Positions 14,101 through 17,860 of a stretch of 59,075 nucleotides of DNA are shown in pieces; within the stretch, counting starts at the first letter, position 1; each line of letters starts with the position of its first letter. A program made the translations under genes and the position numbers. The notes under the pieces are model-generated. The model made no database searches and was not told the origin of the DNA. It saw only the letters and a list, made by a program, of their open reading frames with translations. Where the stretch lies: the NCBI GenBank assembly GCA_050015635.1, contig JBEKBA010000004.1, positions 1 to 59,075 on the forward strand, read 5' to 3'. The stretch comes from Verrucomicrobiota bacterium (GTDB lineage: Bacteria; Verrucomicrobiota; Verrucomicrobiia; Limisphaerales; UBA11358).

Positions 14101-14484
14101 TCATGCAGGAAGCGATAATCGTTTGTCTCCGGTGTAAGGGCAATGGCGGCATCCGCTGCCGCAGCAATAACCGCGTCGCAAATGATGAGCAGCGGTTAAA
14201 ACCATCAGCCCGCCTGCATCAAAATAAAAATCACCGGGCCAAAGTTTTTGCGCCGTTGGATTTGTTTTTTTTATCCGGTTGAACTTCATCACGCAAGCAC
14301 GGCAGATGCAGGTTTTATTTCGCAAAGCCGGTGGCACTTGCGCGAGCAACGCTTCTGGTATTTCAACTTTGGCGCACCAGCATGAACCTTTGTAGGCCGC
14401 AACCGTGCAGCGCTGGCAATCGTTGGGCCGGAAGCATAAGGGACATTGACAGGCATCCAATGTGTTGGCCGCAGTGGGATTCAT
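14101..14484 (-). CDS. Cysteine-rich CWC family + DUF5522-like fusion protein
   Basis: CPLC..NDC...CWC...CICRAC followed by DFYF...[17 protein letters not shown]. Confidence 0.85.
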
Positions 14485-14540
14485 TTTAATGGGTTGTCCT
14501 TGCCGGCCGGAAAGTAAAAACGCGGTTTGTTCATAAAATC

Positions 14541-15377
14541 TTATTGCAAGTCATACAGGGAATTGTCAGGCGAAAGAAATCCGGTGCCGGGCGCGACATT
14601 GGCCGCGCCATCCGAATTGGTCGTATAACACGCGAACAATGATTCCGCGTGGCCATCGCAAAAAGCGACATTGCTGCGACCGTCGTGGCGGTAGCCTTGC
14701 GTGCCGGCGTAACGCCCGCTGAAATTGGCGTCGCCGGGATTCGGCCACGGCGCGCGCATGAATTTATCCGCGCCGGCGGAATACTGGCCGTCGCCGAACA
14801 GGGCGGTTTTTGTCGGATGATTCACCGCCGCCGTTTTGGCCGGCACCGGGGCGGCTTGACCCGTCGGATCATTTTCGTTTTCACCCTGGCCGTGGCCGAT
14901 GTAGCTCGTGTTGTAATTGTAGCCGGTGTAAGGATCGCTGCCCCAATCCGCGCTGCCGTTGAACGACGGGCATTGCTGGATTTGCGGATTGGTTTGCCCT
15001 TGCCAAAGCACTCCCGGAACAACGCGGCCTGTATTTTCATACGTTGTAAAATCCCAACAGTAAAAAACACTGTTCACCTCGTCAAAATAGTAGGCGAACG
15101 GATAGAAGTCCGAATTGTCGCCGGTATAGACCTGCGCGGCGATGTCCAGTTGACGCAGATTGCTGACGCATTGAATGCGTTTGGCTCGTGACTTGGCTTC
15201 GGCCAGCGCGGGCAAAAGCATGGCCGCCAGAATTGCAATGATGGCAATAACGACCAGCAGTTCGATCAAGGTGAAGGCGCACGTGCCGGCGCGCGGCAGG
15301 CGGCCAGCGACGGGAATTCCCCGCTGCTTTTGAAAGCAGCTCTCATTGCCCGCCGCTCGCCGCTCTTTGGGTATCAC
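14541..15377 (-). CDS. Prepilin-type N-terminal cleavage/methylation protein with H-X9-DG C-terminal motif (DUF1559-like)
   Basis: [31 protein letters not shown] and [19 protein letters not shown] at 15377 overlaps the upstream stop (GTGA). Confidence 0.9.
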
Positions 15378-17485
15378 GGATTCAATTGCACGCGGTAAAA
15401 CGCCTTGCCGGCTGGCGCGTGGGTGTCTTGCAACGTGATCGGCTGCACGTTCGTCGCGGTGAACGTGCTGATCGGCGTCCACGTCAGGAGGTTGACCGAG
15501 CGCTCCAGAGTTTCCGCGCAATTCGGCACCGGCGTGAATTGAAACGCGAAGCCGTTCGTGAGCGCTTGAATGCTCAACTGCGGCGGCACAATTTGCGACA
15601 CGACGAACGCCGAAAAATTCGTGATGCCCGCGACCAGAACCTCGTCGTTCGTCGGATTGAAAGTGAACGGCTGCGAGGTCCAGTTCGTGGAGTTCCATTG
15701 GAACACGCGCAAGTCGTTGCCGTTGCCGGTGTAACTGTCCCCCGCGCGCAAGCCGACACTCGCTTGAAACGTCACGGCATTGGTTCCGGTCACCGGTCGC
15801 GACATGATTTGATACGCGCTGGACACGTTGCCTTCGACCGGCGCGAACGACGAAAAGTCGTTCAAGCTGACGGTGCTGATTCTGGCGCTGTCGCTCACGG
15901 AATCAAAGTCAATGGCAATGAGGCTTTGACTGGTATCATCCGGTTTTTGGAAAACGAGACTCGTGATGCCGGAAGCCAGATTGCCCGGCGTGATGGAAAG
16001 CGCATCGCCCACGACCACCGGATCAACCGCCGCAATCGCGTCAATGACGGTGTAAGTGCCTGCGCCGGGTTGAACGCGGACGTATTGAATCCACGGCAGA
16101 CCGGACGCGTTCAAATTATAGCCGCTGCCGCCCGCCGCGCCGATAAATTGATCGAGACCGCTGGCAACGGATTGTCCGCCGAAGTTATTCGTATAAATGT
16201 AGGGATTGAGCGGCTTGGTCGGATTCATTTCCTCGTCCGTCCACGAGGCATTCGTGTCATCCCAGCGATAAGCCTCGTCCGGAAAAAGCGCCGGCGTGTT
16301 GCTGAAAACATACCAGTGGGTGCCGTCCTGGCTCACCGAAATCGTTGCGGAATGCCCAAAAAAACCGCTGCTTAACGTGGCGGCATTCAAATCCGTTCCG
16401 TCACCGATGGTTCCCGATGTGTCGGCTGCCGAAAAAAACGCGTAGCCATAAACAATCAAATCAATGCCGTAGGGATTATTGGGGTCGTTATAAACTTTGC
16501 GGCCGAGTTGCGCGGTGATTTGTCCGCCGCTTTTGATTTCGGTGATTACATCGCTGCCGTCCGGCGCCACATTGAAGGGCGGATCAATGAGGGTGACCCG
16601 GTCGGTGACATCGCCGTCGTAGGGATCGAAAAATTGTAAAGTGGGGCGGTTCAGAATCGCGGTCGGATTATTATAGGGGCTGTAGGGATCCACATTATTC
16701 GTGCTGACGATTTGAACCGCGAAGTCGTTCGTGTTGCAAACATAAGCCACATAAGTGCCGTCAGGCGACGGCGGAGCTTGTTCATCATAGTTGAAGGCAT
16801 AATAGGCGACGTCGTTGGTATTGGAATCGTATCCGGCCGCCGCCACCGAAAATCCAATCCACGAACCATTCGTCAGCGGCAAATCATCCAAACCATAATC
16901 GGCATACGCCCATTGGCCTTGATCCCCCGTGTCGGTATTCCAATAGACATTCGTTCCCCGATTTGGCGAAGCCTCAAAACCACCGTTGTCGCCCAGCTCA
17001 TTCCAAACTTGCCAGTTTGGCCCGAAATAACCGCCCCAGTATAAATCGCCGCCGTTGATCGCGTAGGCAGCATCTACGTTCACGGTGGCATCGGTAAGAA
17101 GACCGTTGGTGAAAAAATTGGTGCTGGTCCCGTCTGTGACACCGATAACGCCATTGCCATTAAGATTGTAGCCGATGCCTTCAATAAACGTGCCGTAGGT
17201 ATCATTATCCACTATGTATAATTTGGGGTCGGCGGCGGCGATGGCCTCGAGCATTTGCGTTCCCGTGACTGACCCGTTGAAACGGTAGCCCCATACGAGC
17301 GTTTTGTTCGCAACCGGAGCGGGAACAGTGGTGTAGTTGAATACTTCAGGCGTATTCCACTCAATGACCAGGGCGGCATAGTTGGTGCCGGAGCCGGTCC
17401 ACAGTTGGATGTCATTCAGCGAAATTGCCTGTGCTTTGGAAACGAGAAACAAGCCGGCCAATGCCAGCAAACGGATTTTTTTCAT
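15374..17485 (-). CDS. Secreted multidomain surface protein, candidate corrinoid-binding (BtuH-like domain)
   Basis: Signal peptide [27 protein letters not shown]...IAAADPKL domain; [29 protein letters not shown]...VSQDG..W...IQYVRV domain; C-terminal [10 protein letters not shown]...FYRV; directly downstream of a B12 riboswitch. Confidence 0.7.
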
Positions 17486-17711
17486 GGGCTGATCTTTCAA
17501 TTTTGTTCCGCTAAAAAATTCACGGAACGGTTTTTTAGTTGAGAGACCAGCGCGGAGTTTGATGATTTGAAAATAGAAAAACCTTCAAGCTCCGGCAAAA
17601 CGGGGAATGAAGGCATCCAACGAATCCCGCTGAAAACAGTTCAGCGGGCTGGCCTCATCCTTCTCTTTGCGGAGAAGTTGGCCGAATTGCTTCGACCACG
17701 ACGAGCGCAAA

Positions 17712-17860
17712 TCAAACCGGTATCCTGACTTCGGCTTCGAACCGCCTTCCGCCTTCCCGATTTCTCGGTGGCATTGGAATTTGTAGCCGTTACAGTGGCG
17801 CAACCGTCCCGGATTCACACCGGGTTCCCTGACATTTGACTGCCTGGCGAACAAGCAACC
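17712..17860 (-). ncRNA. Cobalamin riboswitch
   Basis: Minus strand reads AGGGAACCCGGTGTGAATCCGGGACGGTTGCGCCACTGTAA...GCCACCG...CGGGAAGGC...AGTCAGGATACC, the canonical B12-element motifs. Confidence 0.93.

Follow-up and report, generated by a model that had tools for sequence, protein, structure and literature searches.

Known cobamide uptake systems and the locus under study

Escherichia coli takes up cobalamin through BtuB-TonB and BtuFCD under the control of a cobalamin riboswitch, with B12 repressing the uptake genes. In Bacteroides thetaiotaomicron, as far as the available portions of the published accounts describe it, cobamides pass through a relay that combines BtuJ/DUF4465, BtuH, BtuK and BtuG with BtuB (PMC13616437, PMC8941943, PMC13398666). 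We investigated an operon led by a cobalamin riboswitch in a stretch of 59,075 nucleotides (nt), hereafter the window, on contig JBEKBA010000004.1 of assembly GCA_050015635.1 (a Verrucomicrobiota bacterium from peat soil; Limisphaerales; UBA11358), the source genome measuring 3.46 Mb in 286 contigs and being 93% complete. The operon encodes a secreted multi-domain protein, a prepilin-type protein and a Cys-rich protein, from three open reading frames (ORFs) designated ORF1, ORF2 and ORF3. We think it rather likely that the operon is a B12-repressed module for corrinoid acquisition, pairing a secreted binder with a dedicated pilin-like protein; the way in which it obtains B12 probably differs from that of the known transporters. 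The elements of the operon, in their order on the minus strand, are as follows (aa, amino acids):

17698-17881, minus strand: cobalamin riboswitch aptamer, RF00174 (cmscan, 66.3 bits, E = 3.3e-14)
15374-17485, minus strand: ORF1, secreted multi-domain protein, 703 aa (ORF list)
14541-15377, minus strand: ORF2, prepilin-type DUF1559 / H-X9-DG protein, 278 aa (Pfam/NCBIfam)
14101-14484, minus strand: ORF3, Cys_rich_CWC + DUF5522 protein, 127 aa (Pfam)

The riboswitch match, obtained in an Rfam covariance scan of the window, exceeded the gathering score of 31.5 and spanned the full model (1-189). The start codon of ORF2, GTG at 15377, shares bases with the stop codon of ORF1 (GTGA), and no transporter gene lies inside the operon. 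A sequence-only reading of this DNA had recognised the same parts (a B12 riboswitch, a 703-aa secreted protein, a GTGA-coupled prepilin and a CWC/DUF5522 protein) and had remarked on the lack of btuB and btuFCD among them; every one of these parts is present, and the remark on the transporter genes is borne out.

Compared with the Bacteroides relay, in so far as the accessible text of its descriptions allows, the locus is alike in having exported accessory proteins under B12 riboswitches in a B12-dependent organism that is a non-synthesiser by two marker genes, in having multi-domain proteins with immunoglobulin-like (Ig-like) spacers, and in the presence of paralogous loci within a single genome; the DUF4465 domain is also found in some ORF1 relatives. 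It differs in that ORF1 has no detectable homology to BtuH, BtuG, BtuJ or BtuK and bears a Sec rather than a lipoprotein signal, in that neither a BtuB/TonB partner in the operon nor a BtuB equivalog in the genome accompanies it, and in having an obligate pilin-like partner, which is not part of the relay as those portions describe it. With uptake of the E. coli type the locus shares the riboswitch family and the regulatory logic, but no protein; BtuC/FecCD was not found, and the BtuF-like protein is signal-less and encoded elsewhere.

Conservation of the linkage among riboswitch, ORF1 and pilin

The whole genome contains two RF00174 matches and two copies of ORF1 (64% identical to each other), with one riboswitch ahead of each copy and a DUF1559 pilin after each, and this pairing of both riboswitches with both copies is far beyond chance. 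The second locus, on contig C205, consists of a riboswitch, the ORF1 copy, a DUF1559 pilin gene whose start overlaps the preceding stop, and the start of a CWC gene cut by the contig end.

The same arrangement is conserved in relatives. Among close relatives of ORF1, a riboswitch was found upstream in 11 of the 12 scanned loci, the twelfth beginning inside the gene, and the pilin was the next gene in 13/13 loci. For more distant loci, a profile of the central domain of ORF1 was used as seed on one-genome-per-species contigs and returned 516 relatives. A B12-clan riboswitch was present upstream on the same strand in 44/60 of these distant loci (41 RF00174, 3 AdoCbl-II), several of the misses being contigs cut upstream; by group, the proportions were 19/23 in Planctomycetota, 17/18 in Verrucomicrobiota, 5/5 in Armatimonadota, 1/1 in a Firmicutes-labelled record, 2/10 in Desulfobacterota and 0/3 in Dehalococcoidia. 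A same-strand pilin accompanied the central domain in 44/66 distant loci, including 0/14 in Desulfobacterota and Dehalococcoidia together. Seeding the search of the same contig collection with the pilin returned 550 relatives at ≥54% identity among 581 pattern matches; the central domain lay upstream in 74 of the 77 new loci (of the three without it, two are on cut contigs), and 35 of the 40 loci scanned had an upstream RF00174. The loci obtained with the two seeds overlap partly, some being drawn from the same contigs.

The ORF1/pilin module recurs in hundreds of genomes. In an even phylum sample the central domain was found in just 14/301 genomes (10/149 genera), and the module is therefore patchy. 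The linkage of riboswitch, secreted protein and pilin is nevertheless kept across Verrucomicrobiota, Planctomycetota and Armatimonadota. Few protein families have expanded as much in Planctomycetota and Verrucomicrobiota as DUF1559/H-X9-DG, and one tightly conserved DUF1559 subfamily, nearly always located behind a B12 riboswitch and beside both secreted domains, thereby gains a concrete ligand context. The sequence-only reading had expected such a context for the pilin-like family, and through the conserved riboswitch linkage a B12 context is gained by this one subfamily.

Several loci depart from the common layout. Three loci in Armatimonadota (L077; L082, 2072-2147; L088, 2063-2138) have the reversed order, the pilin followed by the central-domain protein, and a short AdoCbl-II switch (RF01689). 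Contigs with operons of the type found in the Planctomycetes-Verrucomicrobia-Chlamydiae (PVC) group were filed under Bifidobacteriaceae, Bifidobacterium, Baltobacteraceae, Dongiaceae and Bacillota metagenome-assembled genomes (L007, L009, L016, L151, L137, L158, L172 and others), probably through mis-binning or mislabelling. Two relatives have a second cobalamin riboswitch near the operon (L012, 456-646; L010, 9417-9606); the one in L010 stands ahead of an ORF of 741 aa, which, from reading its translation, we presume to resemble ribonucleotide reductase.

ORF2 belongs to a dedicated pilin subfamily

ORF2 matched N_methyl (PF07963, E = 1.3e-6) and DUF1559 (PF07596, 25.2 bits vs. cut-off 23.3) in Pfam, and H-X9-DG (TIGR04294, 23.2 vs. 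19) and TIGR02532 (25.6 vs. 16.3) in NCBIfam. The protein consists of a 33-aa leader peptide, compared with 24-26 aa in most of its relatives, and a mature part of 245 aa; Gly at position -1 is absent, and the Ala found there is shared by 7/14 members of the subfamily. In PDB, type IV pilins and GspG are matched by the first ~57 residues, including Glu5, and the globular part (~185 residues) has no match there. In a tree, 15 riboswitch-linked pilins form one group apart from the 14 other H-X9-DG ORFs of the genome (branch 2.24, support 93/99), and mean identity within the subfamily is 74% (14-sequence alignment). Two relatives, P0152 and P0168, are each called as one protein in which the central domain of ORF1 is followed by PEP-CTERM and then by a pilin of the ORF2 subfamily (E = 1e-100 and 3e-98, respectively). 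A complex prediction for ORF1 (residues 21-703, 26 rows) and the pilin (residues 30-245, 14 rows) scored 0.00 against a mark of 0.32, which is evidence neither way.

ORF2 is like the pseudopilins of type II secretion systems (T2SS) and the modular type IV minor pilins in its class III signal, in the motif FTLIELL with Glu5, and in a helix matching PilA, GspG and PilE. It is unlike them in its globular domain, which is without a solved relative, in its longer leader and in the Ala at -1, and its gene stands in a vitamin regulon rather than in a secretion or pilus operon.

Conceivably, although we find it doubtful, the pilin does not build fibres: after cleavage by the prepilin peptidase it would stay anchored in the inner membrane through its N-terminal helix, its periplasmic globular domain serving, in the manner of a tethered binding protein, as a corrinoid receptor or hand-over partner, while ORF1 would act periplasmically or at the outer membrane. 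The Pfam name for DUF1559 is SBP_bac_10; the pilin is better conserved between phyla (54-65% identity) than the central domain of ORF1 (29-47%), as expected for a part that contacts a ligand or a machine; and at one locus (L121) the pilin adjoins a BtuF-like gene, ORF1 being absent from the nearest 3 kb. Against such a receptor stand the match of the N-terminal 57 residues to assembling pilins and GspG, Glu5 included, and the presence in the genome of a prepilin peptidase (peptidase A24) and four secretins.

ORF1 in comparison with known B12 binders

ORF1 is 703 aa long from its ATG, or 708 aa if the TTG at 17500 is used. By hydropathy its N-terminus resembles a Sec signal, which ends AQA-I and has no lipobox Cys. 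The parts of the protein are listed below; the limits of the four domains and regions after the signal peptide are approximate, being drawn from the stretches of the profile that partial and stand-alone relatives cover.

17426-17485, minus strand: signal peptide (hydropathy)
16751-17425, minus strand: N-domain, residues 21-245 (profile-match limits of relatives)
15986-16750, minus strand: central domain, residues 246-500 (likewise)
15593-15985, minus strand: beta-rich region, residues 501-631 (likewise)
15377-15592, minus strand: C-terminal domain, residues 632-703 (likewise)

Searched with a profile, 1.84 billion cluster representatives yielded 1605 hits at E ≤ 0.001. None of the 267 close relatives of ORF1 carries a name, and ORF1 itself matched no Pfam or NCBIfam family at E ≤ 0.1. 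The N-domain and the central domain, which we call the core domains, each occur alone with a PEP-CTERM tail; 43 stand-alone relatives of these domains had no Pfam match at E ≤ 10 except for sorting tails, namely PEP-CTERM in 5/12 N-domain and 14/31 central-domain proteins and dockerin in 6/31 central-domain proteins. The two core domains are unrelated, since hhalign between them matches just the shared PEP-CTERM tails. The PEP-CTERM motif was also found in 10 of 48 sampled ORF1 relatives, and Pfam detected none in ORF1 itself. At least 10 further ORFs in the genome terminate in a homologue of the last ~70 residues of ORF1 (E = 1e-9 to 1e-2; contigs C68, C17, C36, C142, C26 and C31), and this C-terminal domain may be a shared sorting or anchoring domain, a candidate for a lineage-specific one.

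The sequence-only reading had seen in a motif of the central domain a resemblance to the BtuH type, for which neither Pfam or NCBIfam nor sequence and profile searches of PDB gave support. The PDB searched should include BtuH2, BtuG, BtuJ and BtuK, the structures of which are reported in the available parts of two papers (PMC8941943, PMC13616437). At E ≤ 10, the whole of ORF1 matched a single chain (hnRNP F, E = 2.9, chance level), a central-domain profile of 31 sequences matched no chain, and an N-domain profile of 12 sequences matched just cathepsin B (E = 0.47). An AlphaFold2 model of ORF1, built from a 26-row alignment of close relatives, had a mean predicted local distance difference test score (pLDDT) of 47.9 and a predicted TM score (pTM) of 0.30; both core domains were mostly below pLDDT 50, and only residues ~520-700 reached 70-84, as beta-sandwiches. 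Foldseek matches of this low-confidence model to PDB had TM scores of ≤0.18 only (e.g., ankyrin ZU5 and iduronidase) and are meaningless; no Btu protein was among the 50 matches listed. In the ESM Atlas the nearest cluster of the central domain was a "LIC_13355 family lipoprotein" (0.90) and that of the N-domain an unnamed cluster (0.83), both of which are leads only.

It is very improbable that ORF1 is a true BtuH homologue acting as one step in a lipoprotein relay that feeds a TonB-dependent transporter. The B12 riboswitch context that such a homologue would have is genuine, but the central domain finds no PDB chain, the only match of the whole protein is a chance one, and its signal is of the Sec type and not that of a lipoprotein. 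Pfam found no PKD match in ORF1, whereas BtuH2 is, in the accessible part of its description, a lipoprotein with PKD domains plus a globular B12-binding domain at its C-terminus (PMC8941943). The genome furthermore has no BtuB equivalog and no riboswitch ahead of either of its classical TonB-dependent receptors, and BtuH homologues occur predominantly in Bacteroidota according to the available text of PMC13616437. From the sequence-only reading as a whole, the B12-riboswitch unit, the absence of btuB and btuFCD and the conserved linkage remain, the BtuH-like identity finds no support, and pilus-linked capture of corrinoids is a candidate route.

Two other domains connect relatives of ORF1 with B12. 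DUF4465 (PF14717), which the available part of PMC13398666 describes as the BtuJ-type B12-binding jellyroll, had no match at E ≤ 10 in ORF1 or in the 43 stand-alone domain relatives. One relative, P0251, has the central domain fused to DUF4465 (E = 1.1e-54). Surface proteins with DUF4430 (PF14478), a domain that we take to be transcobalamin beta-domain-like, resemble the family in that 6 relatives among 270 proteins have DUF4430-like segments after the central domain; they are unlike ORF1 itself, which had no DUF4430 match in Pfam and the core domains of which both gave an hhalign probability of 0.1% against these segments.

ORF3 and the BtuF-like protein

ORF3 matched Cys_rich_CWC (PF14375, E = 2.2e-12, 47.6 bits vs. 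24) and DUF5522 (PF17653, E = 4.1e-18, 65.6 vs. 25); it contains 14 Cys and, by hydropathy, neither a signal peptide nor a hydrophobic segment. It has 303 relatives, with both domains in all 120 listed, and a single-protein search for ORF3 loci returned just 4 close relatives. A homologue of ORF3 follows the pilin in 28/77 pilin-seeded loci and at the second locus of the source genome. In 10 distinct relatives the operon also contains, after the pilin or the CWC gene, a BtuF/TroA-like protein without a signal peptide, 42-50% identical to the copy that the source genome encodes on contig C22. That copy is the sole BtuF-like gene of the genome; its product has no signal peptide, and it is not in a transporter operon.

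At locus L121 (2548-4609), from the cultured isolate Limisphaera sp. VF-2, a pilin of the B12 subfamily is directly followed by a signal-less BtuF/TroA-like gene, and no ORF1-like gene or riboswitch was found within 3 kb upstream of the pilin.

B12 physiology of the genome

The organism depends on B12, and a MetH equivalog is present (1991 bits). Searches of the 93% complete genome detected no CbiC, CobS, FecCD/BtuC, SbmA_BacA or ABC_membrane_2. The lack of btuB noted for the operon extends to the genome, in which the best TonB-B12 match reached 26.9 bits against the equivalog cut-off of 599.7. Two classical TonB-dependent receptors are encoded (on contigs C48 and C13), neither with a riboswitch; on reading their surroundings, we take their neighbours to be pqq genes (C48) and exbB/tonB genes (C13). 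The module may explain how B12 reaches those bacteria of soil and peat that require it and in which neither synthesis markers nor BtuB/BtuCD were detected.

Leader and expression

Between the aptamer and the AUG of ORF1 lies a leader that is strongly conserved over ~200 nt (n = 10 leaders aligned). Its features are:

17486-17697, minus strand: conserved 212-nt leader, putative expression platform (10-leader alignment and consensus fold)
17660-17677 and 17626-17648, minus strand: leader hairpins (10-leader alignment)
17582-17613, minus strand: terminator-like stem (10-leader consensus fold)
17569-17581, minus strand: U-run after the terminator-like stem (10-leader alignment)
17539-17550, minus strand: invariant box CUGGUCUCUCAA (10-leader alignment)
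17505-17528, minus strand: leader hairpin (10-leader alignment)
17489-17500, minus strand: invariant box UUGAAAGAUCAG, just 5′ of the AUG (10-leader alignment)

The terminator-like stem shows compensatory changes at two pairs among the 10 leaders (UA:6/CG:3 and CG:4/UA:3). A simple terminator scan did not include this hairpin in its list, but the 10-leader alignment does reveal it. On inspection, CUGGUCUCUCAA appears able to pair with the upstream GAUGAGGCCAG or, alternatively, with UUGAAAGAUCAG before the AUG. The terminator-like stem, together with the two pairing options of CUGGUCUCUCAA, suggests combined transcriptional and translational control.

In 3 of 4 metatranscriptome runs, contigs span the aptamer and the leader and reach 150-175 nt into ORF1; such RNA-library contigs carry no information on level, ends or strand. 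DNA of the operon occurs in peat and bog metagenomes.

Proposed mechanism and evidence on the ligand

The analysis establishes the riboswitch, the gene set and how it is conserved, and the dependence of the organism on B12; ligand binding, contact between the proteins, their localisation and the direction of transport we infer along the following lines. At low intracellular cobalamin, the riboswitch would permit transcription, translation or both through the leader with its terminator-like hairpin. ORF1, with two core domains, Ig-like beta-sandwiches and a C-terminal domain common to other exported proteins of the genome, would be exported by Sec; the pilin-like DUF1559 protein would be cut by the prepilin peptidase of the genome and inserted or assembled by a machine like that of type II secretion or type IV pili; and the Cys-rich CWC/DUF5522 protein would stay in the cytoplasm. 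ORF1 may then capture corrinoids extracellularly or in the periplasm, with the pilin-like protein as an obligate partner that would present, anchor or retrieve it and so replace the BtuB/TonB step, which the genome seems not to have. In relatives, the signal-less BtuF/TroA-like protein of the operon and the Cys-rich protein would handle the cofactor inside the cell.

A more specific version, which we consider unlikely, would have the DUF1559 protein build a short pseudopilus, acting through a secretin as a piston or as a tether, which hauls the loaded binder or the corrinoid across the outer membrane, with a pilus machine as the driving force and independently of TonB, while the CWC/DUF5522 and BtuF-like proteins process or hold the cofactor in the cytoplasm. 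Should the pilin take an active role, a large cofactor would be crossing the outer membrane by a novel mechanism. Our literature search found no paper linking DUF1559, pilins or CWC/DUF5522 domains with cobalamin, supplementary regulon tables lying outside its coverage.

Several observations count against a corrinoid-acquisition module. No domain of ORF1 is detectably similar to a known B12 binder in Pfam, NCBIfam, PDB profiles or hhalign, and the quality of the structure model is too low for a verdict on the fold. The searches, which did not extend to importers of the BtuM and ECF types, brought no inner-membrane importer to light; absences from the genome are provisional because it is 93% complete and in 286 contigs. 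The metatranscriptome contigs may stem from DNA carry-over. Outside PVC and Armatimonadota the core domains are mostly not B12-linked (riboswitch in 2/10 Desulfobacterota and 0/3 Dehalococcoidia; pilin in 0/14), and because of this they may be general surface modules, not B12 binders per se, that PVC lineages recruited to the B12 regulon. At three Desulfobacterota loci the riboswitches are instead of the cyclic di-GMP (c-di-GMP) class, and tandem copies of core-domain homologues occur there with no pilin. The riboswitch sites at these loci are:

L039, 1-59
L047, 1959-2043 and 4839-4915
L059 (Desulfosarcina cetonica), 131-215 and 306-547, with c-di-GMP-I and cobalamin riboswitches in tandem

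Riboswitches for c-di-GMP typically control surface and biofilm genes. Their position ahead of the core domains in L039, L047 and L059, and the PEP-CTERM (5/12, 14/31) and dockerin (6/31) tails of those domains, which recall matrix and adhesin proteins, would fit a module that is not for corrinoids and that builds a surface or adhesive structure under B12 starvation, for instance for attachment to B12 producers or particles. We judge this quite improbable in view of the fusions that join the central domain with DUF4465 and with DUF4430-like domains, the BtuF-like gene inside the operon of relatives, and the B12 dependence of an organism in which known uptake genes were not found.

Neighbouring genes and minor features

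On the opposite strand, the operon is flanked by a gene at 17950-18993 that, from reading its translation, we take to be malate dehydrogenase, and by one at 11984-13366 that we assume on the same grounds to be phosphoglucosamine mutase. An 89-aa ORF at 17585-17854 on the minus strand runs through the riboswitch, and the N-terminus of the database protein P0134 corresponds to the same spurious frame, so that some public gene calls translate the riboswitch. Right after the ORF1 stop, within the region coding for the leader peptide of the pilin, is a hairpin with a perfectly paired stem of 8 bp (GCUGCUUU/AAAGCAGC) and a loop of 2 nt (15323-15340, minus strand). Elsewhere in the window, a thiamine pyrophosphate (TPP) riboswitch (RF00059) was matched at 36408-36532 on the plus strand, its 55.0 bits barely exceeding the gathering score of 54.3.

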